Shown here: one piece after another, positions 8,565-27,107 of the stretch | Layout: each line of letters begins with the position of its first letter | Position numbering within the stretch: position 1 is the first letter of the stretch | From: Candidatus Omnitrophota bacterium | Lineage (GTDB): Bacteria > Omnitrophota > Gorgyraeia > JAHIPI01 | NCBI GenBank assembly: GCA_043800065.1 | Contig: JAZDNG010000029.1 | Location: 2,837-66,836, forward strand | Length of the DNA: 64,000 nucleotides | Direction: 5' to 3' | Program-made: the position numbers and the translations under genes | The notes under the pieces: generated by a model | The model's database searches: none | What the model was told of the DNA's origin: nothing | Seen by the model: only the letters and a program-made list of their open reading frames with translations

Positions 8565-10591
8565 CGAAAGCGGTTATAATAACAGAGGGCGGCAAAAAAA
8601 TAGGACTCGGGCATCTTGCGAGGTGTATCTCTCTTTATCGAGCATTTGAAAAGAAGAAAATTAGCCCGGTGCTTATCATAAACGGCGATAAAACCGCTGA
8701 GGATGTTTTGGCGGGCTACGATTGTCGTATTTTTAACTGGCTCAAGCACAAACAACGGCTATTTGATATTGCGAAAGATTCGGATATAGCGGTTATCGAT
8801 TCTTATATTGCGGGAGCCGGTATATACAAAAGAGTATCTAATTTCGCAAAAGCCGCTGTGTATCTTGACGATAATATGCGGATGAAGTACCCGCGAGGTA
8901 TTGTGGTAAACGGATCTATCTCTGCCGAGCTTATGAAATATCAGAAATCCAACGGTGTGGAATATTTATTAGGCAGCCGTTATATTTTGCTGAGAAAAGA
9001 ATTTTGGGCTGTGCCTGCAAAACGAATAAACGGTAAAATCAAAAGCATCATGGTCACCTTCGGCGGCGCGGACGGCAGGAACATGACTCCTAAAGTAATA
9101 GATTTCCTGAATACCCGCTATCCCAGCGCGGAAAAAAATGTAATAGTAGGCGCCGGCTTTAAAAATAGCAGAGAAATAGAACGGCTTAAAGATAAAAAGG
9201 TCAATTTGATATACAGTCCGGATACCAAAAAAATGCGCGCGGCCATGCTTAAGTCCAATATAGCTATTTCAGCAGCCGGACAGACATTGTGTGAATTGGC
9301 GAGAATAGGCGTGCCCACTATCGCGGTCTGTGCGGCAGATAATCAGTTTCGCGGCGTAAAGGGCTGGCAGAAAAGCGGCTTTATAAGATATGCTGGAAAA
9401 CATAGCAACAAAGGTCTTTTTAATAAACTGTCATCAGCAATAACAGAATTAGAGCCTTCTCAAAAGCGGCGCAAAGTAAGCGCGATAGGTCGGAGTTTAG
9501 TGGACGGCAAAGGAGCCCAGAGAGTCACCAAGGCAGCTATTGCTGCCGCAAAAAAAGTAAGAGTGATGCTTACGTGCGTAGGAGGCAAGTTCAGCCGCAA
9601 TACGGTAAAGCTGCTGAAAGAGAGCAAAGATCCCGAGATAACGGTTATAGGGGTCGATTCAGGCAGGAGTATCGGATGCATCGATGGCCTGCAAGCGTTT
9701 CATATCGTTCCCCGCGGCTCTGATAAAGTGTATATACCGAAATTATTGGAATTGTGCGGGAAAGAAAGTGTCGATATTGTCATTCCCTGCGCCGATGAAG
9801 AAGTAGCTAAGATAGCCGCTTTTAAATCTCAGTTTGACGGGGCAGGTATTACATGTGCGGTAGATGGCCGGAAAACAGTTGCGCTGACCAATGATAAATT
9901 TGCATTATTTGAGCACCTGTCCAGAAATGGTATAAATATGCCCAGGTACAAATTAATAAAGAGCGCACAAGAGTTGAAGAAAAGCGCAGCATATTTCGGA
10001 TATCCAAAAGAAAAATTTGTGATTAAGCCGAGATGCGGCAGGGGCACGCGCCATACATTTATCATAGGCAATGACGGCGAGTCCATGCCGTTAGAAGAAG
10101 CGCTGAATATATTCGGCGATTTACCGACGAACTTAATGGCCATGGAATACCTTTCGGGCGAGGCGTATGATGTGGATGTCCTGGCGCGTGAAGGTAATCC
10201 ACTTTGCATAGTGCCAAGGCGCCGGACATGGCTAAATAAACTATCGCCCTTTAGTGAAGGGTGCGAGGTCGAAAACAACGAGGATGTAACGGAGTTTGTA
10301 AAGAGAATAACTTTGGTATTAAAGCTTAACTACGCCTATGATTTTGATTGCGGGATTACTGCTAAAGGGAAACCCGCGTTATACGAAATAAACCCGCGTT
10401 TTAGCGGGGCGATAGCCGCAAGCGCCGGCGCAGGGATTAATATGCCTGTCATGTTGGTCAGGATGATGCGCGGTCTGGATATACCGAAAATGCGTATTAA
10501 ATTCGGGACTAAAATGATACCGAAACCAAACGGCGGCATGGACTTCGTACGCTTAAAAACAAAGAGGTTTTTAAAAGAGAACAAAAAATGA
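8561..10591 (+). CDS. Fusion of a PseG-like UDP-sugar hydrolase (N-terminal ~330 aa) with an ATP-grasp ligase domain (C-terminal ~340 aa)
   Basis: N-terminus …GGKKIGLGHLARCISL… is the PseG GxGHxxR signature. The C-terminal half (…VRVMLTCVGGKFSRN…DIVIPCADEEV…YLSGEAYDVDVLA…YEINPRFSG…) has ATP-grasp/PylC-like organisation. Confidence 0.55.
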   Translation: MTKAVIITEGGKKIGLGHLARCISLYRAFEKKKISPVLIINGDKTAEDVLAGYDCRIFNWLKHKQRLFDIAKDSDIAVIDSYIAGAGIYKRVSNFAKAAVYLDDNMRMKYPRGIVVNGSISAELMKYQKSNGVEYLLGSRYILLRKEFWAVPAKRINGKIKSIMVTFGGADGRNMTPKVIDFLNTRYPSAEKNVIVGAGFKNSREIERLKDKKVNLIYSPDTKKMRAAMLKSNIAISAAGQTLCELARIGVPTIAVCAADNQFRGVKGWQKSGFIRYAGKHSNKGLFNKLSSAITELEPSQKRRKVSAIGRSLVDGKGAQRVTKAAIAAAKKVRVMLTCVGGKFSRNTVKLLKESKDPEITVIGVDSGRSIGCIDGLQAFHIVPRGSDKVYIPKLLELCGKESVDIVIPCADEEVAKIAAFKSQFDGAGITCAVDGRKTVALTNDKFALFEHLSRNGINMPRYKLIKSAQELKKSAAYFGYPKEKFVIKPRCGRGTRHTFIIGNDGESMPLEEALNIFGDLPTNLMAMEYLSGEAYDVDVLAREGNPLCIVPRRRTWLNKLSPFSEGCEVENNEDVTEFVKRITLVLKLNYAYDFDCGITAKGKPALYEINPRFSGAIAASAGAGINMPVMLVRMMRGLDIPKMRIKFGTKMIPKPNGGMDFVRLKTKRFLKENKK

Positions 10592-11976
10592 GGATCGCAC
10601 TTATTCAAACCGTTCAACAGGAAGATACAGGCAGGCCAGAAATAGGCTTAGGGATACCCTATTTGAAATCCTACCTTTTGAAACACGAGCCGGACGTTGA
10701 AGTGGATTTATTCGTAAACGACGATAGGTTTAAAACTTTTGACCCCACTCATTATAACTTGGTAGGGATATCAAGCGTTTCCTTCTGTTTTGACGAAGCG
10801 AAGGAAATAGCGAAAATGGTAAAAGAAAAAAACGATATTCCTGTTCTTTTGGGCGGCTCCCATATATCAAATCTTCCCCAAAGCATCGAATATAAGTATT
10901 TTGATATAGGTGTTATCGGAGAGGGCGAGCAGACCTTTCTTGAATTAGTTCAAGCGCATAAAAAATACAACAGATTCACGCCAAACATACTTGAAAGCAT
11001 AAAAGGCATTTGTTTTGTTAATGACGAAAAATATTGCTTTACAGGTCATAGAGATTACATATTTCCACTTGATAATATACCTAATTTCAACAAGGACTTT
11101 TTAAGAATTACCGGTGCTTTGCCTTATGTGGTGTCAACGAGAGGCTGCCCCTTCAATTGTAAATATTGCAGTAGTCAAACGATGTGGAAAAGGAAATTAA
11201 GATTTCACTCTGCTGATTACGTTTTAAAGGACATATTGGAAATACAAGAGCTATTCCCCGAAGAGCGTAGGATTATTTTTAAAGATGATAATTTCACCGC
11301 CAATAAAAATATGCTTTTAGGACTTATCGAAAATTTAGACAAGATAGAGAAGAGAAGGGCAAAGTTTATCGGCTCTACCCATATAAAGTTTATAAACGAG
11401 GAGATGCTAAGGATATTCAAGATACTAAACGTTATAAAAATCAATTTTGGCATAGAAACAGCCTCAAACCGGCTCTTAAGGATAATCAGAAAAGGCATGA
11501 CAAAAGAAGATGCACAAGCAACTTTGGATTTGTGCTATAAAAACGGGATAACAACGGGATCGTCGTTTTTAATAGGTTTACCCGAAGAAACTGAAGATGA
11601 TTTAAAAGAGACTTACGAGTTTACTTTGGACAATATGAAAAGAAATAAGCTGTTTACCACCGGCACGAACCTGCTCACGCCCTTGCCCGGCTTAAAAAGC
11701 GAATATTGGGATACGGCTGTGAATAAATACGATATAGACATACATACTTTTGAGTGGAAGAGGTTGGATCTTAGAAGTTTTCACGCTTATTATCTGCAGC
11801 GTAACGGCGGAACCATAAAAGACTGGTGGGCGTGGCGAAAGATGAAAAAGGCATTATACATCGGCGGTCTTCCAGAGGACAAGTTTTTGAAAGTCATAGA
11901 ACCTTACGAAATTGAACTTATAAGGTATAACAAGGCAAATAGTAAGAGAGAAGGCGCTTGTGCAAATAAAAGTTAA
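10588..11976 (+). CDS. B12-binding (class B) radical SAM enzyme
   Basis: N-terminal cobalamin-binding-like domain (…VGISSVSFCFDEAKEIAKMVKE…IPVLLGGSHIS…, GEGEQTF). A CPFNCKYC (Cx3Cx2C) cluster sits at about aa 187. Confidence 0.7.
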   Translation: MRIALIQTVQQEDTGRPEIGLGIPYLKSYLLKHEPDVEVDLFVNDDRFKTFDPTHYNLVGISSVSFCFDEAKEIAKMVKEKNDIPVLLGGSHISNLPQSIEYKYFDIGVIGEGEQTFLELVQAHKKYNRFTPNILESIKGICFVNDEKYCFTGHRDYIFPLDNIPNFNKDFLRITGALPYVVSTRGCPFNCKYCSSQTMWKRKLRFHSADYVLKDILEIQELFPEERRIIFKDDNFTANKNMLLGLIENLDKIEKRRAKFIGSTHIKFINEEMLRIFKILNVIKINFGIETASNRLLRIIRKGMTKEDAQATLDLCYKNGITTGSSFLIGLPEETEDDLKETYEFTLDNMKRNKLFTTGTNLLTPLPGLKSEYWDTAVNKYDIDIHTFEWKRLDLRSFHAYYLQRNGGTIKDWWAWRKMKKALYIGGLPEDKFLKVIEPYEIELIRYNKANSKREGACANKS

Positions 11977-12994
11977 AAATAAAAGAATAGGCGATAACGC
12001 GCCTGTTTTCATAATAGCGGAAATCGGGACAAATCATAACGGCGATTCGAAGCTTGCCGCGAAGCTGATCAAGGAAGCGGCGAAGGCAAGGGTAGATGCC
12101 GTTAAATTTCAGATTGTAAACCCCGAAGAAAGTTACCAGAGAGGAAGCCTTTCCTATAAAGTATTTAAGAAGGCCCGCCTTGACTTCTCTGTTTTAAGAA
12201 CGCTTAAAAAAGAAGCAGAAAGACGGGGTTTAATATTTTTCGCGACACCGGGCGATGTGTCAAGTTTAAAAGAATTGATCAAACTGGGCGTGCCTCTTAT
12301 TAAAATATCCTCTGGCTGCATGACGAATATTGTCCTACTCAGAAAGGCGGCAAAGACGCGACTCCCCATAATAATGTCAACGGGGATGGCATATATGGAT
12401 GAAGTAAAAAACGCGGTTTTGGAATTAGAAAGAAACGGAGCGAGAGACATGGTGCTTTTGCACTGCGTGTCAAGTTATCCGGCAAAGTATGCGGACATCA
12501 ATCTTAACTCTTTGAGGACCCTTAATAATAACTTTAAATATCCTGTAGGCTATTCTGATCACACTGACGATAACCTGGCGTCATTGGCAGCTGTTTCGAT
12601 GGGCGCGGCAGCTATAGAAAAGCATTTTACCTTAAGTAGGAAACTTAAAGGCCCGGAGCACTATTTTTCCTTGGAGCCGGCGGAATTCAGGCGATTGGCA
12701 AAAGATATACGGAATGTGGAAAAGATGCTGGGTAGTTCAGAAAAAAAACCTAGCGAAAAAGAATTAAAGGCGCGAAACACTTTTCGGAGATATCTTGTCT
12801 TTATGCGCGACTTGGGCAGAGGCAGCGTTATACGGGACGAAGACATAGGCGTGAAACGGCTTAATAAGAAAATCGGTTTATCTCCTCAAAAATATGACGA
12901 TATTATAGGAAGCAAGACTTTGGCAGACGTCTCAAAAGATGATCCGGTATCACTAAGGCTGCTTAATGGCAAAAAGAGCGGGGGGATACGGTGA
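11960..12994 (+). CDS. pseI: Pseudaminic/N-acetylneuraminic acid synthase family (NeuB/PseI/LegI), GTG start
   Basis: …VFIIAEIGTNHNGD…AVKFQ… NeuB-family N-terminus. The C-terminal SAF-like tail and 344-aa length are typical. Confidence 0.75.
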   Translation: MQIKVKNKRIGDNAPVFIIAEIGTNHNGDSKLAAKLIKEAAKARVDAVKFQIVNPEESYQRGSLSYKVFKKARLDFSVLRTLKKEAERRGLIFFATPGDVSSLKELIKLGVPLIKISSGCMTNIVLLRKAAKTRLPIIMSTGMAYMDEVKNAVLELERNGARDMVLLHCVSSYPAKYADINLNSLRTLNNNFKYPVGYSDHTDDNLASLAAVSMGAAAIEKHFTLSRKLKGPEHYFSLEPAEFRRLAKDIRNVEKMLGSSEKKPSEKELKARNTFRRYLVFMRDLGRGSVIRDEDIGVKRLNKKIGLSPQKYDDIIGSKTLADVSKDDPVSLRLLNGKKSGGIR

Positions 12995-14352
12995 AAAAGG
13001 GAAACATAGTTTTGTTCTTCCCATCATATGTCGGCATGGGCACATATCATTGGTTTCCCTTTCCTTATCTATATATCGGCCCGTTTTTGGAAAAAGCCGG
13101 ATTTAAATCTGTAATTATCGACGCGAGAATCGAGCCGCAATGGAAAGAACTTTTAAGAAAATCTCTGAACGGTTCATTATGCGTGGGAATAACGGCGATG
13201 ACCGGCTCCGATATCAAGGATGCAATTGAAGCGGCTACTATATGTAAGAAGGCCGATCCAATGATGCCGGTTATTTGGGGAGGTCCGCACGCAACCGCCG
13301 ACCCGGAAGGGACCGCGAGACTAGATTACGTGGATGCCGCTGTGTGCGGCCAGGGCGAAGATGCAATGACTAAAATTGCGGAAAGGGTCTATGAGGGCAA
13401 GGATTTTTCTGGCATCCCCGGCGTGGTATACAAGAAAGGCGAATCGATTTTGAAAAATACTAAAAGCGAAGTTCCTTTTGACTACGACATCTATCCCGGA
13501 TTTCATTTGGTAGATGTAGAGAAATACCGTTCTCCGAATAACATCATATCCGTATTTACTTCCAGGGGGTGTCCATTCAGATGTTCATTCTGCACAACAG
13601 GCGATAAGGATTATTCTGAGAGGACGCTTGAACAGGTAAAGAATGAAATCTCGTTCGTGGTAGATAAGCTCAAATTCAAAAATATATTTTTTCAAGACGG
13701 CACATTCTTTGTAAAAAAGAAGAGGGTGATGAAAATAGCCGAATGGCTGGTTTCATCCGATATTAATATTAAATGGAAGGGCAAAGCAAGGACGAATTCT
13801 CTTCTTGACTATTCTGCGGAAGAACTTGCGTTGCTGAAGAAATCCGGCCTTGTATCCGTATTTTTCGGAGTAGAATCCGGCTCTCAGTCAATTTTAGACA
13901 GGATGCAGAAGGGCACGAAACCCGAAGATGCCGAAAAAAGCGCCGCGATATGCCGTGACTATGGCATGGAATTCTACGCCTCATTCATGTTCGCCGTTCC
14001 GCACGAGACTACTAAGGACCTGCAAAATACTATCGCGCACATACGTAAATTAAAAAAAATTAATCCCAAGGCGATAATCCAGAACTGCATATACATCCCG
14101 CTGCCAGATACTCCTATGTATGAAGATGCGCGCAGATGCGGATATAAACCGCCTGAAACGCTGGAGGGATGGATTGAAAGGAATATATCTTCGCGGTTTG
14201 AAGAACGTCACGATATTACCTGGATTCCTCCGAAGACACTGAAAGAGTATATAAAAATATATAACAGGGAATTCGGCGTGTATAAACATCTTTTTGAGCG
14301 CGAGAAAGAAGGGGCATACACGTCTGTTTTTAAAGAAAAGACGGAGGGATGA
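12991..14352 (+). CDS. B12-binding (class B) radical SAM enzyme, paralog 2
   Basis: …TSRGCPFRCSFCT… Cx3Cx2C cluster. N-terminal B12-like domain with GQGEDAM. 453 aa. Confidence 0.7.
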   Translation: MKKGNIVLFFPSYVGMGTYHWFPFPYLYIGPFLEKAGFKSVIIDARIEPQWKELLRKSLNGSLCVGITAMTGSDIKDAIEAATICKKADPMMPVIWGGPHATADPEGTARLDYVDAAVCGQGEDAMTKIAERVYEGKDFSGIPGVVYKKGESILKNTKSEVPFDYDIYPGFHLVDVEKYRSPNNIISVFTSRGCPFRCSFCTTGDKDYSERTLEQVKNEISFVVDKLKFKNIFFQDGTFFVKKKRVMKIAEWLVSSDINIKWKGKARTNSLLDYSAEELALLKKSGLVSVFFGVESGSQSILDRMQKGTKPEDAEKSAAICRDYGMEFYASFMFAVPHETTKDLQNTIAHIRKLKKINPKAIIQNCIYIPLPDTPMYEDARRCGYKPPETLEGWIERNISSRFEERHDITWIPPKTLKEYIKIYNREFGVYKHLFEREKEGAYTSVFKEKTEG

Positions 14353-15029
14353 ACATGAAAAAGATCTTAGTGGTCGCAGCGCATCCTGATGACGAAGTAT
14401 TAGGCTGCGGCGGAACCGTCGCTCGAATGATAGCGGAGGGCAATGAAGCATATACGCTCATACTGGGGGAAGGCATAACTTCGCGATATCCCAAAAGCTC
14501 AAATAGGATGAAGAAAGATCTGAGGGAGCTTAGAAAGGCAATAGGGAAGGCCAACCGTGTCATAGGCGCAAAGAGTGTCTTTCCGTTAAATTTTCCTGAC
14601 AACAGGTTCGATACCGTTTCGACGCTTGATATAGTCAGGAGCATAGAAGCTATAAAGAATAGAGTCAAGCCGCAAGTTATATTTACGCACCACTGGCGCG
14701 ATTTGAACATAGACCATAGGGTGGCTTTTAACGCCGTTCTCACGGCATGCCGGCCCGTAGAAGAGGAGACCGTAAGCGCGATTTATTCTTTTGAGATACC
14801 GTCTTCAACGGAATGGAATTACCCTTACACCTTTGCGCCGAATCTATTTGTGGATATAACGGCGATGTTGAGTAGGAAAATTTCGGCAATGAAATGCTAT
14901 GCGACCGAACTGAGAAAATTTCCTCATCCACGGTCTCCCAGGGCTGTTGAGGCGCAGGCTGCAAAATGGGGAAGCGTTGTTTCCAGAAATTATGCCGAAG
15001 CGTTTGAAATCGTGAGAATGATAAAATGA
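14349..15029 (+). CDS. PIG-L/LmbE-family N-deacetylase
   Basis: ILVVAAHPDDEVLGCGGTVA… is the canonical LmbE AHPDDE metal-binding motif. Confidence 0.75.
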   Translation: MNMKKILVVAAHPDDEVLGCGGTVARMIAEGNEAYTLILGEGITSRYPKSSNRMKKDLRELRKAIGKANRVIGAKSVFPLNFPDNRFDTVSTLDIVRSIEAIKNRVKPQVIFTHHWRDLNIDHRVAFNAVLTACRPVEEETVSAIYSFEIPSSTEWNYPYTFAPNLFVDITAMLSRKISAMKCYATELRKFPHPRSPRAVEAQAAKWGSVVSRNYAEAFEIVRMIK

Positions 15030-17614: not shown

Positions 17615-17644
17615 AAATTTTTTGAGTTAAAGTAGAGGCAGAAT

Positions 17645-18577
17645 ATGAAAATTTTAATAACGACAAGTTCGTTTGGAAAATACGATAGGATTCCGCTCGA
17701 TAAGCTCCGTTCGGCGGGCCTGGAGATTATTATGAACCCCTTCGGCCATACCTTGTCTAAGGAGGAGGCGCTGGAATTATATACCCCGGACATAGAGGGC
17801 GTCATAGCGGGCGTCGAGAATATCACAGAAGAGATGATTTTAAGGGCGAAGAACCTAAAGGTGATTTCCCGTTGTGGAATCGGGTTAGATAATATTGATG
17901 CTAAAGCGGCAAAACTGCGCAATATAAGAGTGCTTAATACGCCAGAACCCGTAATAGATGCTGTAGCAGAACTGACTCTATGCTTCATTTTGTGCTGTCT
18001 GCGGAATGTACCCGCTGCCGATAACAATATGCACCGCAGCGTTTGGGATAAGCCGACGGGTTTATTGCTAAAAGGCAAGATATTAGGAATTGTCGGATTG
18101 GGAAATATCGGCAAAAGGGTAGTAGAATTGACGGGCGCTTTTAAACCGCAATTCTTGGCTTACGACAAGAAAAAAGACACTGCTTTTGCAAAAAAATATA
18201 ATGTGATTTTTAAGAATTTAGAGACATTGCTTTCGGAATCGGATATAGTGAGCCTGCACCTGCCGCTTACGGAAGAGACAAAGCGCTTATTGAATGCGGG
18301 GAATCTAAGCCTTATGAAGCTAAGCGCTTTTTTGATAAATACGTCCAGGGCGCAAATCATAGATGAAAATGCTCTAATCGGCGCCCTAACGCGGAAACAG
18401 ATAGCCGGTGCGGCGTTGGATGTTTTTGAAAAAGAACCCTATGCCGGCCCGTTGACCGGACTTAGCAATGTCATATTGACGCCGCATATCGGTTCTTACA
18501 CAAAAGAGGCGAGAAGTGAGATGGAGCTTCAGGCAGTCGACAATTTAATAAAGGCATTGTTGGGATATGGGAGATAG
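17645..18577 (+). CDS. D-isomer-specific 2-hydroxyacid dehydrogenase (glycerate/phosphoglycerate dehydrogenase-like)
   Basis: NAD-binding GKILGIVGLGNIGKRVV motif. Overall 2-Hacid_dh organisation with a catalytic His/Glu/Arg region (…LTPHIGSYT…). Confidence 0.75.
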   Translation: MKILITTSSFGKYDRIPLDKLRSAGLEIIMNPFGHTLSKEEALELYTPDIEGVIAGVENITEEMILRAKNLKVISRCGIGLDNIDAKAAKLRNIRVLNTPEPVIDAVAELTLCFILCCLRNVPAADNNMHRSVWDKPTGLLLKGKILGIVGLGNIGKRVVELTGAFKPQFLAYDKKKDTAFAKKYNVIFKNLETLLSESDIVSLHLPLTEETKRLLNAGNLSLMKLSAFLINTSRAQIIDENALIGALTRKQIAGAALDVFEKEPYAGPLTGLSNVILTPHIGSYTKEARSEMELQAVDNLIKALLGYGR

Positions 18578-19253
18578 TTCTAAAAAGAATCAAGCGAATA
18601 TAGATAAATACAGCGTTTTTTTCTTCGATTTCGACGGTGTAATCGTTGACAGCCTGGATATCAAATCTCAGGCATATGCCGAGCTTTTTGAGGGCTACGG
18701 AAAAGACGTTGTCAGAAAAGTGATGGATTATCACTTAAGCGAGGGGTGGGCATTGTCGCGCTACGATAAATTTAAATATTATTACAAAAACGTCTTACAC
18801 AAGAAAATAACCCCCGCAATAATAAATGAGCTCGACAAACGGTTTTCTGAGTTGGTGGAGCAAAAAGTAACGAAAGCGCCTTTTATCAAAGGCGTAATAG
18901 AGTTTTTAGAGGCGCTTAAAACGCGCGGGAAAGAATGTTTTATAATTTCCGCAACGCCCGAAAAAGAAGTAAAGCGGATAGCGGAATCAAAAAGGATAGA
19001 CAGCTTTTTTAAGGAAATCATCGGCTCTCCAAGGACAAAAAAAGAGAGCATGAGGTATCTGCTTAGGCGATATAAAATAAATCCTGCCGCAGCAGTTTAT
19101 TTTGGCGACACAAAAAGCGATTATGAAGCTGCCCTTGAAAACGCGATAAATTTTGTAGGCATAGACTATGACGGCAACAAGGAGCTCGAAACATTACATG
19201 GTATATTTAAGGTAAAGGATTTTTCACATTACACGATGAGGAGGGATAAATAA
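18567..19253 (+). CDS. HAD-superfamily hydrolase (phosphatase, subfamily IA)
   Basis: FFDFDGVIVDS motif I (DxDG), and later …FGDTKSDYEAA… motif IV. Confidence 0.7.
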   Translation: MGDSSKKNQANIDKYSVFFFDFDGVIVDSLDIKSQAYAELFEGYGKDVVRKVMDYHLSEGWALSRYDKFKYYYKNVLHKKITPAIINELDKRFSELVEQKVTKAPFIKGVIEFLEALKTRGKECFIISATPEKEVKRIAESKRIDSFFKEIIGSPRTKKESMRYLLRRYKINPAAAVYFGDTKSDYEAALENAINFVGIDYDGNKELETLHGIFKVKDFSHYTMRRDK

Positions 19254-19254
19254 G

Positions 19255-20016
19255 ATGTCGGAATTACTCAAAACAAAACTAAAAAGGCAAGTACTTACAA
19301 TAGGTTCATGGATTACGTTTGGGCATACTTCCATCGCTGAAATTATGGCGAAAGGCGGCTTTGATTGGCTGACAGTGGATATGGAGCATTCTGCAATCAC
19401 GCTCAGCGAGGCGCAAAAGCTAATCCAGATTATTGAACTTGCCGGTATTGCGCCGCTGGTTAGGGTCGGCGAAAACGACGCATGCCTTATAAAACGGGTT
19501 ATGGATGCAGGCGCACACGGAGTAATTGTGCCGATGGTTAATAGTAGAGAGGAAGCGATAAAAGCAGTGGACGCTGTCAAGTATCCGCCGGCAGGCAGAA
19601 GAGGCGTGGGGCTCGCGCGAGCCCAGGGCTACGGCCTGGAATTCGAAAAATATAAGAAACGCATAAATAAAGAAAGTATAGTTGTGACCCAGATCGAAAG
19701 CATAGAGGCTATTGATAATTTGAAAGAGATATTAGAAGTTGAAGGGGTGGATGCAAGCATTATCGGCCCTTACGATCTATCCGCTTCCCTGGGATATCCG
19801 GGCGAATTTGAAAGGAAAGAAGTGAAGGAGGCAATAAAAAGATATATAAGGGTATGCAAAGAGCTTAAGAAGTCTGCGGGACTGCACGTTGTTCCTCCAG
19901 TTGCAAAAAAACTTGATGATGCAATAGAGAAAGGTTTTAAGTTTATAGGATTCGGATTTGATGCGCTTTTTTTAGGCCAGAAAATTAAAGAGGAGTTAGA
20001 AAAAATAAAGAGATGA
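19255..20016 (+). CDS. HpcH/HpaI-family class II (pyruvate-dependent) aldolase
   Basis: …SWITFGHTSIAEIMAKGGFDWLTVDMEHS… and the …PMVNS.EEA… pattern are characteristic of HpcH/HpaI and citrate-lyase-beta-like aldolases. Confidence 0.7.
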   Translation: MSELLKTKLKRQVLTIGSWITFGHTSIAEIMAKGGFDWLTVDMEHSAITLSEAQKLIQIIELAGIAPLVRVGENDACLIKRVMDAGAHGVIVPMVNSREEAIKAVDAVKYPPAGRRGVGLARAQGYGLEFEKYKKRINKESIVVTQIESIEAIDNLKEILEVEGVDASIIGPYDLSASLGYPGEFERKEVKEAIKRYIRVCKELKKSAGLHVVPPVAKKLDDAIEKGFKFIGFGFDALFLGQKIKEELEKIKR

Positions 20017-20777
20017 ATATCATAGGCATAATTCCTGCAAGGATGGCTTCAAATAGATTTCCCGGCAAACCCTTGGCAGAGATAATGGGCAAGGCAATGA
20101 TATATCACGTCTACTGGCGAAGCAGGATGGCAAGGAGTTTGAATGAAGTCTATCTTGCTACGTGCGATAAGGAGATAGAGCGGTATTGCCGGGAAAATAA
20201 AATGAATGTAATAATGACCAAAGATACACACCAGCGCGCTTCGGACAGGGCCGCGGAAGCGCTAAAAAAAATAGAGAAGAAAACGGGCAGGAGAGCCGAT
20301 ATCGTTGTTATGATTCAGGGGGATGAGCCGATGCTTGTTCCTAAAATGATAGATGCCGTACTTCGGCCCATGTTGAAAGATAAAAGCATTTCTGTGGCAA
20401 ATCTTATGTACGAAATTAAAAGCGCGAAAGAAGGCCATAATCCCAATATAGTAAAGGTCGTAAAGGATAAGGATAATTACGCCCTTTATTTTTCCAGGGA
20501 AGCCATACCTTCGGAGAAAAAGGCAAAAAAAGGTATAGTGAAGTACAAACAGATTGCCATTATTCCCTTTAAGCGGGATTTTTTGATAACTTTCAATAAA
20601 CTTCCCCAGATGCCCTTGGAGATCATTGAATCGGTTGATATGTTGAGAGTTTTGGAGCATGGGTATAAGGTAAGGATGGTTATGTCTCCGGTTAATACAT
20701 ATGGAGTAGATACGCCCGGCGATTTTAAAATGGTAAGAAAACTAATGAGCAGGGATCACTTGATTTCGCGCTATTAA
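20013..20777 (+). CDS. KdsB-like CMP-ulosonic acid cytidylyltransferase (CTP_transf_3)
   Basis: IIGIIPARMASNRFPGKPLAEI N-terminus as in CMP-Kdo synthetase. This is a second cytidylyltransferase in the locus. Confidence 0.7.
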   Translation: MNIIGIIPARMASNRFPGKPLAEIMGKAMIYHVYWRSRMARSLNEVYLATCDKEIERYCRENKMNVIMTKDTHQRASDRAAEALKKIEKKTGRRADIVVMIQGDEPMLVPKMIDAVLRPMLKDKSISVANLMYEIKSAKEGHNPNIVKVVKDKDNYALYFSREAIPSEKKAKKGIVKYKQIAIIPFKRDFLITFNKLPQMPLEIIESVDMLRVLEHGYKVRMVMSPVNTYGVDTPGDFKMVRKLMSRDHLISRY

Positions 20778-20806
20778 TGGATAATTTTTAGCAAAAGGAG
20801 CCAAAG

Positions 20807-21850
20807 ATGAAACATGGAAAGAAATTAGCCGTTGGCATCGCTGGTTATGGCGTTGTCGGCAAACGCCGACGCGAAGTTATAGACCAACATCCGAATTTGC
20901 ACACTGTCGCCGTATGCGACCAAAGATTTGATAAATCAGGCGCTATGCCGGACGGCGTCCAATATTTCAGTAGTTACCACCGACTTCTCAAGGAGCCGCT
21001 TGATTTACTATTCGTATCTTTGCCTAATTATTTGGCCGCAGAAGTGACTATGGCCGGCCTTAAAAAAGGCCTCCATGTTTTTTGCGAAAAGCCACCGGGT
21101 CGCGATGTTCAAGATGTTGAACGGGTAATTGAGGTCGAAAAAAAACACCCCGGGCTTATATTAAAGTATGGTTTTAACCACCGTTATCATGACTCTGTCC
21201 GCGAGGCCCTGCGAATTATCAAATCGGGTGAATTGGGAGAGATTATTAATATGCGCGGGGTATACGGTAAAGGCAAGATCGTTTCTTTTTCCAGCGGCTG
21301 GCGTGCTGAACGAAAGCATGCCGGAGGCGGTATTTTACTCGATCAGGGCATCCATATGGTGGACCTGATGCAGCTGTTCTGCGGCGATTTTACAGAGGTT
21401 AAAAGTTTTGTTTCAAATAAGTACTGGAAGCATGATCTGGAGGATAATGCTTACGCAATAATGCGTGACAGCCGTGGCCGCGTGACAATGCTACATTCAA
21501 GCGCTACTCAATGGCAGCATCGATTTACTCTTGATATAGCCCTTACCAATGGTTTTTTAGAGCTGCACGGAATTCTTTCCGGCTCCAAAAGTTATGGCGG
21601 GGAAAAACTTGTGGTTGGAAAAAGAGACGAGTCTGACGTAGGTACGCAATGGCATAAAACAATTAACTACCTTGAGGATAACTCCTGGCGCGACGAGATT
21701 TACGAGTTTGCCAACGCTATTATTAATGGCGATACTATCAAATCAGGCGGCAGCTTAGACGCCTTAGAGACCATGAAACTGGTGTATCGTATTTACTACG
21801 CTGATGCTGAATGGCGCCGGGCTTACAATATCGCCAATCCGGACACCTGA
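20807..21850 (+). CDS. Gfo/Idh/MocA-family NAD(P)-dependent oxidoreductase
   Basis: LAVGIAGYGVVGKRRREVI Rossmann N-terminus. …EKPP… motif. Confidence 0.75.
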   Translation: MKHGKKLAVGIAGYGVVGKRRREVIDQHPNLHTVAVCDQRFDKSGAMPDGVQYFSSYHRLLKEPLDLLFVSLPNYLAAEVTMAGLKKGLHVFCEKPPGRDVQDVERVIEVEKKHPGLILKYGFNHRYHDSVREALRIIKSGELGEIINMRGVYGKGKIVSFSSGWRAERKHAGGGILLDQGIHMVDLMQLFCGDFTEVKSFVSNKYWKHDLEDNAYAIMRDSRGRVTMLHSSATQWQHRFTLDIALTNGFLELHGILSGSKSYGGEKLVVGKRDESDVGTQWHKTINYLEDNSWRDEIYEFANAIINGDTIKSGGSLDALETMKLVYRIYYADAEWRRAYNIANPDT

Positions 21851-21934
21851 AAGCATGCAGAAAGCGAAGAGCTGTTAAAAACATAAAATATTCAGACCTT
21901 TAACAAAAAACATTCAGCAGGATAAAGAAAGAAA

Positions 21935-23515
21935 ATGAGAATCCTCTTTTTATACCCCAATAAAGTAATGGCAACACGTATGCCACTTGGCATCGGTTAT
22001 CTGTATTCGTATCTGAAAAAAAATGGCCATGATGCTGAGGTTTTTGATACGACATTTTTTAAATGCGGCAACATTCAAAATGATGAAGAATTGCGCGCCT
22101 CATCATTGCAGGTACGTAATCCGGATTTTAAAAAATATAACTTAATAGAGAAAAATGTCGATATTGTTGCTGAACTTGAGCGAAAAATCCAGTCATTTAA
22201 ACCGGATATGATCGCTATGAGCGTTACAGACCCTAATTACAACTTTGGTTTGGAATTGTTGAAAAAGATTAAAAACAAATACAGCAATATCATAACGGTA
22301 GTAGGCGGGGCAACTGTTACGTTTTCTCCAGAGGAAGTAATTGCTGAAGATTGTGTGGATATTATATGTATCGGCGAAGGAGAGGAAGCGATGAGTGAGC
22401 TTTGCAACGCAATACAGCAGGGAAAAGATATAAAAAACATAAAGAATATGTGGGTTAAAGAAAATGGGAAGATTTACAAGAATGATGTCAGGCAATTACG
22501 GGACGTTAATGAAATTTTTCATCCGAACTGGGATATTTTTGATGAGAGGCACCTCTTACGGCCCTTAGGCGGCAAAATGTACCGGATGGGTATATTTTAT
22601 ATGACTCGGGGGTGCCCTTTTCGTTGTACATACTGTGGTAATTTTGCCTTGTCAAGAATGTATGAGCATAAGGGCTCACTTTACAGAGTAAAAAAACCCG
22701 ATTTCTTAATTCAAGAATTAGTATTCTATAAGAAAAAATACAATTTGAATTTTATTTTTTTTACCGATGATCTTTTCCCCCTTCACAAGCCTGAAATCAT
22801 AGATGATTTTTGCAGGCTTTATAAGAAACAGGTGGGACTTCCTTTTTCTGTTGCATTGCGTCCGGAACTTATAACTGAAAAGGATTTCGCCAAGATTGTC
22901 GATGCCGGTTGCCGTAATATCTGCGTGGGATTGGAGTCAGGCAACCCCGGAATAAGAAAGGATGTCTTGGGAAGGGGGTATAAAAACGATGATCTAATTC
23001 GCGTTTTTGGCTTCGCCCGAAAATATAAAATACGCAGCTCTGCCTTCAATATGATAGGCATACCCCATGAAACCAGAGAAAACATTTTTGAAAGTATAGA
23101 GCTTAATAGAAAAGCCAAACCAACCTCTACCACGCTTACTTTTCTTCATCCTTATCGTGGAACAGGCTTAAGGAGTTTATGCATCAAAGAGAAATTTTTT
23201 GACCCCAGTCGAGAAAAAGAATACGAAAATGTTTATAGAGTGGAATCATGCCTTAACCTGCCCACAATTTCTAATAAAGAATTGAGAGGTTTGTTTAAGA
23301 CATTTCAATTATATTTTAAACTCCCCAAAATTTTCTATCCATTAATAAGAATAGCGGAAGGGGATTCATTTTTAGCGAAAGTTATTTTTTACATGTTAAA
23401 ACGAATGTTCTACTATATCACCGATAAAGAATCAAAATGGGATTTTACGGCCTCAGGCCAAAAAGAGCAGGAAAAAGAAAGGAAAGATTGTGAAGAACAT
23501 AAAGTCTTTATTTAA
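21935..23515 (+). CDS. B12-binding (class B) radical SAM enzyme, paralog 3
   Basis: …MTRGCPFRCTYCGN… cluster. GEGEEAM B12-domain motif. 526 aa. AT-rich codon usage. Confidence 0.7.
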   Translation: MRILFLYPNKVMATRMPLGIGYLYSYLKKNGHDAEVFDTTFFKCGNIQNDEELRASSLQVRNPDFKKYNLIEKNVDIVAELERKIQSFKPDMIAMSVTDPNYNFGLELLKKIKNKYSNIITVVGGATVTFSPEEVIAEDCVDIICIGEGEEAMSELCNAIQQGKDIKNIKNMWVKENGKIYKNDVRQLRDVNEIFHPNWDIFDERHLLRPLGGKMYRMGIFYMTRGCPFRCTYCGNFALSRMYEHKGSLYRVKKPDFLIQELVFYKKKYNLNFIFFTDDLFPLHKPEIIDDFCRLYKKQVGLPFSVALRPELITEKDFAKIVDAGCRNICVGLESGNPGIRKDVLGRGYKNDDLIRVFGFARKYKIRSSAFNMIGIPHETRENIFESIELNRKAKPTSTTLTFLHPYRGTGLRSLCIKEKFFDPSREKEYENVYRVESCLNLPTISNKELRGLFKTFQLYFKLPKIFYPLIRIAEGDSFLAKVIFYMLKRMFYYITDKESKWDFTASGQKEQEKERKDCEEHKVFI

Positions 23516-24137
23516 CGAAACCGATAACGTTGAGGAATTTTCAAAGGGTTATTTCGACTACCTTCATAGCCTTTTGAAGCAGCTTGATACCGGCGCAATT
23601 GCAGGATTCATCGGGGAGCTCGAAACGGTGCGCCGGAATCAAAATACAATATTTTTCATAGGCAACGGCGGCTCCGCTTCCACCGCTTCGCACATGGCTA
23701 ACGACTTTAGCTTGGGCTCCAACGCCTGCGATGATGGCTTGCCGCTACGCTCATTGGCGTTGACAGATAATTCAGCGGTTATGACAGCCGTATCCAATGA
23801 CCATGGCTACCAGAACATCTTTATTCATCAACTTCAGGTTCATTATAGGCCCGGAGATAAATTGGTGGCTATTTCAGCAAGCGGAAACTCACCTAACGTA
23901 GTTGCGGCTGCAAAATGGGTCAAAAAACAAGGCGGCCTGACTATCGGATTCGTTGGCTTCGACGGCGGCAAATTAAAAGATATTTGCGACATAACCATTC
24001 ATGTCAAGACGCCAAAGGGCGAATACGGCCCTGTCGAAGACATACACATTATCCTCGATCATTTGACGTACACGTGGCTGTGGTACCAAAAACGCAGGAA
24101 AAGAGAAACCGAAATATCGGCAGCCAAAAACGGTTAA
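23490..24137 (+). CDS. SIS-domain sugar-phosphate isomerase (GmhA-like), GTG start
   Basis: …IFFIGNGGSASTASHMANDF… matches the GmhA-type SIS signature. Confidence 0.7.
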   Translation: MKNIKSLFNETDNVEEFSKGYFDYLHSLLKQLDTGAIAGFIGELETVRRNQNTIFFIGNGGSASTASHMANDFSLGSNACDDGLPLRSLALTDNSAVMTAVSNDHGYQNIFIHQLQVHYRPGDKLVAISASGNSPNVVAAAKWVKKQGGLTIGFVGFDGGKLKDICDITIHVKTPKGEYGPVEDIHIILDHLTYTWLWYQKRRKRETEISAAKNG

Positions 24138-27103: not shown

Positions 27104-27107
27104 AATT

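Follow-up and report, generated by a model that had tools for sequence, protein, structure and literature searches.

Three class-B-type radical SAM enzymes with a likely glycan-tailoring role in a two-module sugar gene array of an Omnitrophota bacterium

A co-directional glycan gene array of about 26 kb (positions 3175-29198, + strand) from an uncultured Candidatus Omnitrophota bacterium encodes three radical SAM enzymes, rSAM1, rSAM2 and rSAM3, which we interpret as independently acquired, optional tailoring enzymes whose chemistry is most likely C-methylation; to this reading as a whole we assign a probability of roughly 0.45. A role in glycan tailoring of some kind is, for all three, likely. 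The presence of three class-B enzymes in the array suggests that sialic-acid-like sugars undergo radical tailoring of a kind not yet characterised, and the literature searched contained no paper that links nonulosonic acids with radical SAM enzymes of class B.

Within the window (the entire 64,000-nucleotide stretch of DNA that was analysed), the array has a GC content of 42.4%, against 46.9% for the remainder. It is best read as a cell-surface sugar operon, or surface-glycan array, comprising two biosynthetic modules. Module A (3525-17614) would, on the best reading, yield a CMP-activated nonulosonate of the pseudaminic acid (Pse) type, an assignment supported by PseB and PseC, both of which pass their NCBIfam equivalog cutoffs. 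Module B (17645-24137) is best read as the source of another sugar acid, whose activating enzyme is of the KdsB type and likewise passes the NCBIfam KdsB cutoffs. The genes of the array, all on the + strand, are as follows.

3175..3528, +, small winged-helix (HTH_24/MarR-like) protein, first gene of the array (Pfam HTH_24, 1.5e-9)
3525..4517, +, PseB, inverting UDP-GlcNAc 4,6-dehydratase (NCBIfam TIGR03589, 473 bits; cutoff 407.75)
4514..5668, +, PseC aminotransferase (NCBIfam TIGR03588, 458 bits; cutoff 423.5)
5661..6539, +, aldo-keto reductase (AKR), paired with the cytidylyltransferase (Pfam Aldo_ket_red, 3.8e-35)
6530..7261, +, cytidylyltransferase 1 (CTP_transf_3), presumed CMP-nonulosonate synthetase (Pfam, 2.6e-30; weak NCBIfam matches to PseF/KdsB models)
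7254..8564, +, class-III (HemL/GSA-aminomutase-like) aminotransferase (Pfam Aminotran_3, 2.7e-42; NCBIfam PRK06209, 260 bits, below cutoff)
8561..10591, +, 676-aa fusion of a PseG-like UDP-sugar hydrolase (N-terminal half) and a PylC-like ATP-grasp ligase (C-terminal half)
10588..11976, +, rSAM1, class-B-type radical SAM enzyme of a rare family, 462 aa (G111-E-G-E114; C187/C191/C194)
11960..12994, +, NeuB-family nonulosonate synthase with NeuB and SAF domains (Pfam NeuB, 3e-76)
12991..14352, +, rSAM2, class-B-type radical SAM enzyme of a widespread environmental family, 453 aa, GTG start (G120-Q-G-E123; C194/C198/C201)
14349..15029, +, PIG-L family N-deacetylase, overlapping the rSAM2 stop codon (Pfam PIG-L, 2.3e-24)
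15026..16006, +, tandem GNAT N-acyltransferase with a PseH-like C-terminal domain (NCBIfam PseH, 88.9 bits, cutoff 93.1; Pfam Acetyltransf_3)
16007..17614, +, conserved 535-aa protein accompanying the Pse module, function unassigned, with no match in Pfam, NCBIfam or PDB (homologues in loci L002, 46%, L003, 43%, and L091, 50%)
17645..18577, +, PGDH-like D-2-hydroxyacid dehydrogenase, module B (Pfam 2-Hacid_dh_C, 5e-53; NCBIfam PGDH, 247 bits, below cutoff)
18567..19253, +, HAD phosphatase, module B (Pfam HAD_2, 1.2e-22)
19255..20016, +, HpcH/HpaI class-II pyruvate aldolase, module B (Pfam, 6.4e-39; NCBIfam HpaI, 197 bits, below cutoff)
20013..20777, +, KdsB-type CMP-ulosonate cytidylyltransferase, module B (NCBIfam PRK13368, 295 bits, cutoff 255; TIGR00466, 162.7, cutoff 155.2)
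20807..21850, +, GFO/IDH/MocA oxidoreductase, conserved upstream neighbour of rSAM3, module B (Pfam)
21935..23515, +, rSAM3, class-B-type radical SAM enzyme, 526 aa (G147-E-G-E150; C227/C231/C234)
23490..24137, +, GmhA-like SIS sugar-phosphate isomerase, module B (Pfam SIS_2, 1.3e-16; NCBIfam gmhA, 98 bits, below cutoff)
24147..25331, +, conserved 394-aa protein, function unassigned, with no family or PDB match (homologue in L002, 45%)
25346..27103, +, ABC exporter, transmembrane domain plus ATPase (Pfam ABC_membrane and ABC_tran), probably exporting or flipping the glycoconjugate
27096..29198, +, fusion of a class-I methyltransferase and an APH-type kinase-like domain, last gene of the array (Pfam Methyltransf_11, 5.6e-18; APH, 1.8e-6)

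The three radical SAM open reading frames singled out in an initial annotation of this DNA encode products identical to the NCBI proteins MFH0840007.1, P0121 and P0241, each titled 'radical SAM protein [Candidatus Omnitrophota bacterium]'. As that annotation proposed, all three possess an N-terminal B12-binding-like domain (PF02310; 38.6, 53.6 and 65.4 bits for rSAM1, rSAM2 and rSAM3, gathering score 32.1) with a GEGE/GQGE motif; all three also match Radical_SAM (PF04055) at 77-82 bits. The Cx3Cx2C cluster that it placed near residues 180-200 is found there in rSAM1 and rSAM2, but lies at 227-234 in rSAM3. In the alignments of the three families, GxGE and CxxxCxxC are invariant and an S/T loop after strand 3 of the B12 domain is strongly conserved, with DPNY invariant in rSAM3 and M70/G72 in rSAM2; the conservation within the B12 domain speaks for a ligand-binding role of that domain.

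Profile searches group all three with the class-B enzymes QCMT/MgmA, TokK, CysS, OxsB, TsrM, HpnJ, PhpK and BchE. A SPASM or anaerobic sulfatase maturase (anSME) identity was rejected, since these searches place none of the three there and Pfam finds no SPASM domain in any of them. Nor is the cobalamin fold absent: the AF2 models of two of the three, rSAM1 (pLDDT 91.6) and rSAM2 (91.2), have a cobalamin-type Rossmann fold as their N-terminal domain. Foldseek matches both models over their full length to MgmA/QCMT, TsrM, OxsB, CysS and TokK (E 1e-17 to 1e-24, TM 0.62-0.72; for example rSAM1 to MgmA 9ccb, E 9.8e-22, and rSAM2 to TsrM, E 6e-24), and PDB-sequence profile searches return the same structural set for all three families. 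Membership in the class-B fold is therefore nearly certain. AprD4 shares this fold but binds no cobalamin, and its match to the two models (TM 0.61-0.70) is as good as that of genuine B12 enzymes, so that the fold is no proof of cobalamin binding.

None of the characterised families was reached (best NCBIfam scores 129-146 bits, against cutoffs of 360-750), and function transfer is consequently not possible. Among the highest-scoring named families are some that do not methylate. HpnJ heads the NCBIfam models for both rSAM2 (145.7 bits) and rSAM3 (113 bits), and all three enzymes have BchE and the ladderane enzyme among their best models; in PDB profile searches the best match is OxsB for rSAM2 (7.6e-23) and AprD4 for the rSAM3 core (9e-19, with TokK at 1.4e-11 and OxsB at 2.4e-9). 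It is accordingly quite possible that one or more of the enzymes use the 5'-deoxyadenosyl radical for sugar chemistry other than methylation, the Rossmann domain holding cobalamin as an electron sink, or nothing. Such chemistry could be an AprD4-like 1,2-diol dehydration or deoxygenation, in which the adjacent GFO oxidoreductase, conserved as a pair with rSAM3, would stand in for the reductase AprD3; deamination, or migration of the amino group, following deacetylation by PIG-L; an HpnJ- or OxsB-like ring contraction or rearrangement; or epimerisation. In the HpnJ pathway a deacetylase acts first and HpnJ follows; in parallel to this, 8 of the 9 loci have PIG-L next to or near an rSAM1 or rSAM2 gene. 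SAR11 is widely regarded as a lineage that does not use B12. Single-cell genomes of SAR11, a lineage without MetH (PMC12478193), carry rSAM2 orthologues; not all Omnitrophota synthesise cobalamin (PMC10066038), and a search of the window found neither a cobalamin gene nor a cobalamin riboswitch. A 2026 review concludes that non-methylating class-B members cannot be told from methylases (PMC12931638). Against this reading, the scores to HpnJ, AprD4, BchE and OxsB (43-146 bits) are far below the family cutoffs of 481-578, the B12-domain motifs show strong conservation throughout the three families, and the majority of characterised class-B enzymes are methyltransferases, members acting on aminosugars included (PMC12931638). 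Methylation specifically is thus our tentative preference.

Although the initial annotation called the three enzymes paralogous, this applies only at the superfamily level; with pairwise identities of 24-26%, they are three old, separate families, independently gained and lost. The closest relative cluster, L002, shares the core described here, with rSAM1 only and without module B, whereas L003 has rSAM2 only, and the proposal that three paralogs act iteratively finds no support.

Their interleaving with Pse genes is real for rSAM1 and rSAM2. An ATGA overlap joins the PseG-fusion gene to rSAM1, a 17-nt overlap joins rSAM1 to the NeuB-family gene, a GTGA overlap joins the latter to rSAM2, and a further ATGA overlap joins rSAM2 to PIG-L; the two enzymes thus flank the synthase and, on the best reading, are translationally coupled to it. 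The gene first named pseG is PseG-like in one half (residues 4-262; NCBIfam PseG 139 bits, cutoff 153.55), but its product is a fusion whose residues 337-640 match ATPgrasp_Ter and PylC-like_N. Similarly, the supposed pseI does encode a NeuB-family synthase, but the NeuB model (323 bits) outscores the PseI model (266 bits), each below its cutoff. PIG-L, the ATP-grasp ligase, the HemL-like aminotransferase and the AKR may together form a re-acylation and tailoring set.

The same associations recur elsewhere. In seven distinct rSAM2 loci of at least 6 kb each, from Omnitrophota, Pelagibacteraceae and Rhodospirillaceae, PseC is present in 7/7, PseG, NeuB and PIG-L in 6/7 each, PseB and a cytidylyltransferase in 5/7 each and ATP-grasp in 4/7, so that Pse clusters with rSAM2 orthologues occur in Omnitrophota, SAR11 and Rhodospirillaceae. 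Orthologues of rSAM1 were found in L001, L002, L091 and L092, the first three accompanied by PIG-L. L001 is a flagellin glycosylation island (PIG-L, rSAM1, CTP_transf_3, SDR, Maf, flagellin, FlaG, FliD, FliS), and in L091 and L092 the orthologue is accompanied by ATP-grasp, PIG-L and GNAT genes as well as additional B12 radical SAM genes. CTP_transf_3 is fused to Aminotran_3 in L005 and to GFO in L093, which ties tailoring to the CMP-activation step. Of the role in tailoring the nonulosonate or its N-acyl group that was first proposed for all three enzymes, conserved synteny gives good support in the case of rSAM1 and rSAM2.

Alternatively, rSAM1, rSAM2 or both could have the acyl donor as their target instead of the sugar. 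An amino or hydroxy acid, either free or bound to a carrier, would be altered, for example by C-methylation, and the PylC-like ligase would join it to the amine freed by PIG-L, leaving a canonical nonulosonate skeleton, in a logic resembling PylB followed by PylC. The position of the PylC-like ATP-grasp domain, immediately upstream of rSAM1 as a fusion to PseG, and of the ATP-grasp genes adjoining rSAM1 orthologues in L091 and L092, is consistent with this, as is the observation that the named enzymes closest to rSAM1 are methylases of amino-acyl carbons (ApyD, 128.6 bits; QCMT/MgmA, 100 bits, PDB profile E 1.4e-28); the HemL-like aminotransferase and AKR could build such an acid. We nevertheless consider it unlikely, given that the ApyD and QCMT similarities are far below cutoff, that ATP-grasp accompanies just 4 of the 7 rSAM2 loci, that L004/L016 have an rSAM2 orthologue with PseB, PseC, PseG and GNAT genes but neither ATP-grasp nor PIG-L within 10 kb, and that annotation of the array yielded no carrier protein or amino-acid-activating gene.

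For rSAM3, neither interleaving with Pse genes nor coupling to them holds up. Its gene is 8 kb further downstream, separated by 85 nt from the preceding GFO/IDH/MocA gene and situated in the other module, and the KdsB/HpcH/GFO/SIS module is found unaccompanied by Pse genes in no fewer than 6 other contigs, which rules against the three enzymes acting as one set on Pse. Among 13 loci with rSAM3 orthologues of at least 57% identity, GFO is found in 7, KdsB-like genes in 6, 2-hydroxyacid dehydrogenase in 5, HpcH and SIS in 4 each and NeuB in 2. We consider it probable that rSAM3 acts in module B and not on Pse; it would be that module's own class-B enzyme, paired with the GFO-type oxidoreductase. 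More divergent homologues (34-39% identity) lie beside NeuB genes (L066-L075), and module B may therefore still be connected with nonulosonates.

Could the three genes merely share a variable surface-polysaccharide island while serving unrelated lipid, cofactor or RiPP-maturation pathways? The lowered GC content of the array is reminiscent of mosaic islands, and rSAM3 homologues at 45-57% identity occur in contexts without any module B gene. Yet start/stop overlaps bind rSAM1 and rSAM2 to sugar genes, divergent rSAM3 homologues also adjoin sugar-nucleotide genes (an HAD-NTP_transferase fusion, an epimerase, GT10, methyltransferases), and the array was searched for precursor peptide, lipid and cofactor genes with none present. 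Synteny with the same sugar genes recurs across phyla in genomes of 24-55% GC, which is more than chance would give, and we regard coincidence as very improbable.

What is established directly here comprises the domain architecture and fold of the enzymes, their motifs, the separateness of the three families and their conserved occurrence with two modules. On this basis the preferred reading, glycan tailoring by C-methylation, can be put in mechanistic terms. SAM would be reductively cleaved at the CxxxCxxC [4Fe-4S] cluster of each enzyme, and the resulting 5'-deoxyadenosyl radical would remove hydrogen at an unactivated carbon, either in the sugar or in its N-acyl substituent. Methylcobalamin, presumably held in the N-terminal Rossmann domain, would most likely then donate a methyl group; synteny points to the module sugars as substrates.

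Parallels exist in known systems. The radical SAM, AKR and aminotransferase genes of the present array resemble the GenK-GenQ-GenB1 triad. That triad consists of a B12 radical SAM enzyme, an oxidoreductase and a HemL-like aminotransferase, and the substrate of Fom3 is reportedly cytidylylated. The AKR and cytidylyltransferase pair resembles the AKR-cytidylyltransferase fusions known from Vibrionaceae Pse clusters (PMC7371886). Methyltransferases make up most of the class-B enzymes characterised so far, and GenK, GenD1, Fms7 and Fom3, which act on sugars and phosphonates, belong to them (PMC12931638).

The glycan array of the window consists of 23 ORFs, as called, which run head-to-tail on the + strand from 3175 to 29198, neighbors overlapping or separated by no more than 85 nt, and its GC content is 42.4%, versus 46.9% for the remainder of the window. 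Two modules lie within it, one holding genes of the pseudaminic acid (Pse) type of nonulosonic acid (NulO) biosynthesis and the other a second set of sugar-acid genes. A scan for promoters and terminators that might separate the two gave no excess over shuffled sequences and zero intergenic + strand terminators. The features needed here are the following.

3525-17614, + strand: module A, Pse-type nonulosonate genes
10588-11976, + strand: rSAM1, radical SAM enzyme, 462 aa
12991-14352, + strand: rSAM2, radical SAM enzyme, 453 aa
16007-17614, + strand: conserved protein, 535 aa
17645-24137, + strand: module B, second sugar-acid genes
21935-23515, + strand: rSAM3, radical SAM enzyme, 526 aa
24147-25331, + strand: conserved protein, 394 aa
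27096-29198, + strand: fusion of a class-I methyltransferase and an APH-type kinase-like domain, 700 aa, last gene of the array and directly behind the ABC exporter

The initial annotation had proposed three paralogous cobalamin-type radical SAM enzymes coupled to Pse genes, and all three of these ORFs are real. Each protein has the class I layout, an N-terminal B12-binding Rossmann domain and then a radical SAM barrel (for rSAM3, as judged by profile). The B12-binding domain PF02310 scores 38.6, 53.6 and 65.4 bits in rSAM1, rSAM2 and rSAM3, respectively (gathering score 32.1), and is followed in all three by PF04055 at 77-82 bits (gathering score 29.5). The CxxxCxxC cysteines (C187/191/194 in rSAM1, C194/198/201 in rSAM2, C227/231/234 in rSAM3) are invariant in the three family alignments, as are the motifs GEGE (rSAM1), GQGE (rSAM2) and GEGE (rSAM3) within their own families; the position of the cysteine cluster near residues 180-200 was correctly described for rSAM1 and rSAM2, but in rSAM3 it lies at residues 227-234. 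AlphaFold2 models of rSAM1 and rSAM2 (pLDDT 91.6 and 91.2) contain an N-terminal domain of five alternating strand-helix units, and at full length they align in Foldseek with MgmA, TsrM, OxsB, CysS, TokK and AprD4 (E 1e-17 to 1e-24, TM 0.61-0.74). The B12 domain of rSAM3 was aligned by profile to residues 65-215 of TokK and 151-332 of OxsB. Compared with solved structures, the profiles of all three families match QCMT/MgmA (9CCB, an identity taken from PMC12931638), TokK, CysS, OxsB and TsrM, plus AprD4.

Assignment to class B, the radical SAM enzymes with a cobalamin-binding domain, is thus borne out by profiles for all three proteins and by the fold of the rSAM1 and rSAM2 models, a fold that by itself is no proof of cobalamin binding, since AprD4, an enzyme that lacks B12, shares it and gives matches just as good. 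Profile matches and fold alignments together argue against the two outcomes that the initial annotation had named as fatal to its claim: no SPASM domain (PF13186) was found at E <= 0.01 and no anSME or BtrN among the PDB profile matches, and the N-terminal domains of the rSAM1 and rSAM2 models are of the Rossmann type. A SPASM, anSME or methylthiotransferase identity is ruled out, there being no SPASM match and only weaker matches, confined to the core, to MiaB and RimO. The term 'paralogous' applies at superfamily level only, as the three proteins share just 24-26% identity. Recent triplication, or a set of iterative paralogs, is rejected on the same figure and because the closest relative clusters hold one enzyme without the others.

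Function could not be transferred from any named class-B family. Among the NCBIfam class-B models searched (HpnJ, PhpK, BchE, ladderane rSAM, QCMT, ApyD, HpnR, KedN5, TsrM, BzaD, AprD4 and ArsL), the best scores were all far under cutoff: ApyD for rSAM1 (128.6 against 750) and HpnJ for rSAM2 (145.7) and rSAM3 (113.1, both against 577.6). The NCBI name of all three genes is simply 'radical SAM protein'.

Cobalamin, if bound in the class-B manner, would be base-off and about 11 Å from the cluster. The residue beneath the cobalt (W76 in TokK, R69 in TsrM, N186 in OxsB) was mapped through HMM alignments to F66 in rSAM1, a position variable within the family, to a conserved T68-x-M70-x-G72 loop in rSAM2 and to an invariant D99-P100-N101-Y102 loop in rSAM3; neither loop is analogous to the reference residues. 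Their conservation suggests, from sequence, a functional ligand pocket whose chemistry the loops do not reveal. A census limited to the window found no cob or btu gene and no cobalamin riboswitch. SAR11 is generally regarded as a lineage that does not use B12. Orthologues of rSAM2 (47-50% identity) occur inside the Pse clusters of four Pelagibacteraceae SAGs of 24-29% GC (L011, L013, L014 and L015, among the relative loci that we fetched), so that SAR11 either scavenges cobalamin for glycan tailoring or has a B12-independent form of the enzyme. SAR11 is without MetH (PMC12478193), and cobalamin biosynthesis in Omnitrophota has been described as 'present but not universal' (PMC10066038).

Module A combines secure and divergent members of the Pse pathway. 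PseB and PseC pass their equivalog models (TIGR03589, 473 against 407.75; TIGR03588, 458.2 against 423.5). The remaining steps are represented by homologous domains below cutoff: a PseH-like GNAT (88.9 against 93.1), a PseG-like domain (139 against 153.55) and a cytidylyltransferase domain (PseF model, 28.9 against 205.7). The gene called pseG in the initial annotation has a PseG-like part but is actually a 676-aa fusion with ATP-grasp, and its pseI is a NeuB-family synthase that falls under both cutoffs and scores higher with the NeuB model (323 against 399.65) than with PseI (265.8 against 340.25). Translational coupling to Pse genes was correctly seen for rSAM1 and rSAM2, which flank the NeuB-type synthase with ATGA/GTGA overlaps, but not for rSAM3, which is 8 kb downstream and preceded by an 85-nt gap.

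The association of rSAM2 with Pse genes is conserved. Its family comprises about 95 protein clusters at >=43% identity, and a genome scan located orthologues in Omnitrophota MAGs, in Pelagibacteraceae (SAR11) SAGs of 24-29% GC and in Rhodospirillaceae MAGs of 53-55% GC; as the scan returned MAGs and SAGs only, it yielded no cultured organism with both an orthologue and a known glycan structure. Every one of the rSAM2 loci counted also encodes PseC, as tabulated here together with the rSAM3 loci.

Genes accompanying rSAM2 and rSAM3 orthologues. Counts are from tblastn of 23 window proteins against all fetched loci; rSAM2, seven distinct loci of >=6 kb; rSAM3, 13 loci of >=6 kb with an orthologue of >=57% identity.
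rSAM2 loci, PseC: 7/7
rSAM2 loci, PseG: 6/7
rSAM2 loci, NeuB: 6/7
rSAM2 loci, PIG-L: 6/7
rSAM2 loci, PseB: 5/7
rSAM2 loci, cytidylyltransferase: 5/7
rSAM2 loci, ATP-grasp: 4/7
rSAM2 loci, HemL-like aminotransferase: 3/7
rSAM2 loci, AKR: 3/7
rSAM3 loci, GFO/IDH/MocA: 7/13
rSAM3 loci, KdsB-like cytidylyltransferase: 6/13
rSAM3 loci, PGDH-like dehydrogenase: 5/13
rSAM3 loci, HpcH aldolase: 4/13
rSAM3 loci, GmhA-like SIS: 4/13
rSAM3 loci, NeuB: 2/13

The rSAM1 family is rare, with about 13 clusters at >=50% identity, all of them metagenomic. One relative locus (L002) carries the same core cluster, its proteins 60-82% identical, with rSAM1 only and without rSAM2 and module B. A second (L001) is a flagellin glycosylation island encoding PIG-L, rSAM1, a cytidylyltransferase, SDR, Maf, TPR, flagellin, FlaG, FliD and FliS. 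Two others encode, respectively, GNAT, ATP-grasp, two B12 radical SAM proteins, PIG-L, GNAT, rSAM1 and a homologue of the 535-aa protein (L091), and rSAM1, ATP-grasp, a B12 radical SAM protein and a PseB-like protein (L092). The next relatives of rSAM1 (relative proteins P0020-P0031, P0041, P0061, P0071 and P0075; 31-38% identity at full coverage, about 720-770 aa) carry a class-I SAM methyltransferase domain joined to their B12 radical SAM unit. A LarA-like gene (Lar_N, nickel-pincer racemase family; L003 6319-7536) sits between the NeuB and rSAM2 orthologues of a further Pse cluster from Omnitrophota.

Module B consists of seven genes, encoding a PGDH-like dehydrogenase, a HAD phosphatase, an HpcH/HpaI pyruvate aldolase, a KdsB-type cytidylyltransferase, a GFO/IDH/MocA protein, the B12 radical SAM enzyme rSAM3 and a GmhA-like SIS protein. 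The cytidylyltransferase passes three models (NF009905, 295 against 255; NF003952, 274.7 against 193; TIGR00466, 162.7 against 155.2). The module is separable, recurring without Pse genes in six relative loci (L006, L007, L018, L021, L023 and L037), and its product may be a CMP-activated ulosonic acid made by way of an aldolase, independently of PEP. More distant rSAM3 homologues are found among sugar-nucleotide genes (45-57% identity; a HAD-NTP-transferase fusion, an epimerase, GT10 and methyltransferases) or beside NeuB, DegT, GFO and 2-hydroxyacid dehydrogenase genes (34-39% identity). A module-B-type cluster that also holds two B12 radical SAM genes includes a PFL-like glycyl-radical enzyme with its activase (L007 1878-4687). 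A 50% identical rSAM3 homologue (L008 9001-10857) lies on an 87-kb ENA contig of phage-like appearance, with many small unannotated ORFs, Cpn10, NADAR and a BNR sialidase-like gene in addition to sugar-nucleotide genes.

Possession of two or three class-B radical SAM genes recurs among environmental nonulosonate clusters. The extra radical SAM genes of four loci (L010, L091, L092 and L093) are just 23-29% identical to any of rSAM1-3, from which it follows that more than one class-B family has been recruited into such clusters. According to these comparisons, nonulosonate clusters of Omnitrophota, SAR11 and Rhodospirillaceae, and also one flagellin glycosylation island, stably include cobalamin-type radical SAM enzymes of at least three families; counting the extra paralogs of the four loci, the number of families is probably at least six. 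The regions concerned are L091 1741-7496, L010 6158-18226, L092 621-4843 and L093 2949-4103, 10001-11407 and 20770-21407, and L093 additionally has a radical SAM gene of the SPASM type. Neither the enzyme class nor the core Pse pathway is new, but a stable place for class-B enzymes within nonulosonate clusters appears to be previously undescribed: the literature searched contained nothing linking radical SAM or Fe-S oxidoreductase genes to Pse, Leg, NulO or flagellin glycosylation, the sole related item being a listing, with no functional analysis, of SPASM-type radical SAM genes that are phase-variable in Campylobacter fetus.

In the proposed scheme, PseB, PseC, the PseH-like GNAT, the PseG-like hydrolase, the NeuB-family synthase and the cytidylyltransferase of module A would lead to a CMP-activated Pse-type nonulosonate. 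An N-acetyl group would be taken off by PIG-L, and the amine re-acylated by the PylC-like ATP-grasp protein or the tandem GNAT; introducing or converting a keto or amino group would be the part of the AKR and the HemL-like aminotransferase. One radical step each, on the sugar or its N-acyl group, would fall to rSAM1 and rSAM2. For module B, the most plausible reading is that the SIS isomerase and the phosphatase would provide an aldose whose condensation with pyruvate would give a 3-deoxy-2-ulosonic acid, which the KdsB-like enzyme would then activate and which the GFO protein and rSAM3 would tailor. Relative loci contain fusions of CTP_transf_3 with Aminotran_3 (L005 5356-7401) and with GFO_IDH_MocA (L093 12482-14209), and these suggest a link between the CMP-sugar stage and tailoring by the aminotransferase and the oxidoreductase. 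A precedent for class-B action on a cytidylylated substrate is Fom3.

By analogy, C-methylation would be the single most likely chemistry of the radical SAM enzymes, with a probability of roughly 45%. It is favored because a radical SAM enzyme grouped with an oxidoreductase and a HemL-like aminotransferase mirrors GenK-GenQ-GenB1. It is favored also because the characterized class-B enzymes listed in a 2026 review (PMC12931638) are mostly methyltransferases, including the sugar enzymes GenK, GenD1 and Fms7; according to the same review, no structural or sequence feature separates class-B methylases from non-methylases. The main rival, that the enzymes carry out radical chemistry other than methylation, we regard as possible if somewhat improbable. 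It draws on the affinities to HpnJ, OxsB and AprD4 in profile searches, on the pairing of PIG-L with radical SAM genes and of GFO with rSAM3, and on the presence of rSAM2 orthologues in SAR11, which lacks MetH (PMC12478193). Of the initial annotation's interpretation, the class-B identity and a sugar-tailoring role are supported. Iterative methylation of Pse by three enzymes is not: two of the three are part of the Pse module, and the third is part of the module for another sugar acid.

Flagella, S-layers, capsules and LPS are decorated with nonulosonic acids (sialic, pseudaminic and legionaminic), and these sugars influence how phages, grazers and hosts recognize their bearers. The known diversity of nonulosonic acids is one of N-acyl and O-substituents and of stereochemistry, not of radical carbon chemistry. 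The broadest interpretation of our data would be that class-B radical SAM enzymes make carbon-modified, chemically undescribed sialic-acid-like sugars as a recurrent multi-family feature, including the hypervariable surface-glycan regions of SAR11 as well as Omnitrophota, and that module B is a PEP-independent pyruvate-aldolase route to a CMP-ulosonic acid with its own radical modification; taken as a whole, we consider this unlikely. Examples would be C-methyl-branched or chain-extended (>=10 carbons) pseudaminic acids and radical-rearranged derivatives. The lead to new sugar chemistry seems solid, its basis being synteny and predicted fold. It gives those who study radical SAM enzymes a new class of substrates for their assays and predicts new sugar structures on very abundant uncultured bacteria, and the SAR11 orthologues pose the testable question of whether B12 is scavenged for surface-glycan tailoring or the enzymes are cobalamin-independent.

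A PMT_2-type (GT-C) glycosyltransferase and an FkbM methyltransferase are encoded upstream of the array on the other strand, an ABC exporter and then the methyltransferase-kinase-like fusion mark its end, and pnp, ftsK, a rodZ-like gene, rimO, uvrA, dnaG, rpoD and secDF lie downstream; the window as a whole is a piece of a bacterial chromosome. No Maf, flagellin or other flagellar gene occurs within the window, and the glycan may be destined for a protein or for a lipid-linked acceptor. The conserved 535-aa protein accompanies the Pse module in L002, L003 and L091 and is a candidate transferase. Searches of Pfam, NCBIfam and PDB gave no match for it or for the 394-aa protein, and comparison with Maf and LIC12162-family proteins was not significant. 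Elsewhere in the window are a 535-aa fusion of Memo-like and AMMECR1 domains (46071-47678), three tRNA genes (45959-46029, 61096-61169 and 62281-62354) and a bacterial class A RNase P RNA truncated by the window edge (63706-64000). The radical SAM partner usual for the Memo/AMMECR1 system was not identified near the fusion; the ORF at 48565-49863 is a MiaB-like methylthiotransferase.

Among known systems, GenK and GenD1 of gentamicin biosynthesis and Fms7 share the class-B architecture and act on an amino-deoxy sugar. We take GenQ to be the counterpart of the AKR, and GenB1, a HemL-like class-III aminotransferase, that of the Aminotran_3 protein. These enzymes, Csp3-methyltransferases according to PMC12931638, work on aminoglycoside pseudo-oligosaccharides in actinomycete secondary metabolism, whereas the substrates here are presumed to be nucleotide-activated NulO or ulosonate precursors of a surface glycan. 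Cytidylyl chemistry is common to fosfomycin biosynthesis and to both modules, whose cytidylyltransferases are fused to tailoring enzymes in related loci. Fom3 methylates an sp3 carbon of its cytidylylated substrate; it belongs to a phosphonate pathway, while PEP mutase and other phosphonate genes are absent from the array searched.

The closest solved relative of rSAM1 in both structure and sequence is QCMT/MgmA (PDB 9CCB; profile E 1.4e-28, Foldseek E 9.8e-22, TM 0.63-0.70), which has the same class I succession of B12 Rossmann domain and radical SAM barrel. Identity is nevertheless 15%, TIGR04014 scores 100 against a cutoff of 360, and QCMT modifies a protein side chain, the methyl-coenzyme M reductase glutamine, in methanogens. 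The rSAM2 family finds its best PDB profile match (7.6e-23, residues 30-357) in OxsB (PDB 5UL4), which catalyzes a cobalamin-dependent ring contraction on a nucleotide's sugar moiety; unlike rSAM2, OxsB has 744 aa with extra N-terminal and helix-bundle domains, and identity is 16%. For the core of rSAM3 the best PDB profile match is AprD4 (6FD2; 9e-19), the apramycin 1,2-diol dehydratase, which also matches the rSAM1 and rSAM2 models. AprD4 has a sugar substrate and a partner reductase, and rSAM3 might pair likewise with the GFO enzyme. HpnJ, associated with hopanoids, is the top NCBIfam model for rSAM2 and rSAM3. Its target, a moiety derived from glucosamine, is N-deacetylated beforehand, a parallel to the pairing of PIG-L and radical SAM enzymes here; HpnJ itself is a non-methylating enzyme, hopanoid genes are absent here and the scores are 145.7 and 113 against 577.6. 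Set against class B, AprD4 binds no cobalamin and is placed among 'unrelated enzymes' in PMC12931638, and NF033070 gives 43-50 against a cutoff of 500.

Flagellin and O-antigen Pse islands resemble the array through the rSAM1 orthologue of the Maf and flagellin island L001, while the window has no Maf or flagellar gene. With the canonical CMP-Pse pathway (PseB, C, H, G, I and F) the array shares true PseB and PseC equivalogs and PseH-, PseG-, NeuB- and cytidylyltransferase-like genes, and an AKR and cytidylyltransferase pair after PseC is found in Vibrionaceae Pse clusters as well (PMC7371886). Unlike the canonical pathway, the later steps here fall under the equivalog cutoffs, and a deacetylase, an ATP-grasp ligase, an aminotransferase and two class-B radical SAM genes have been added.
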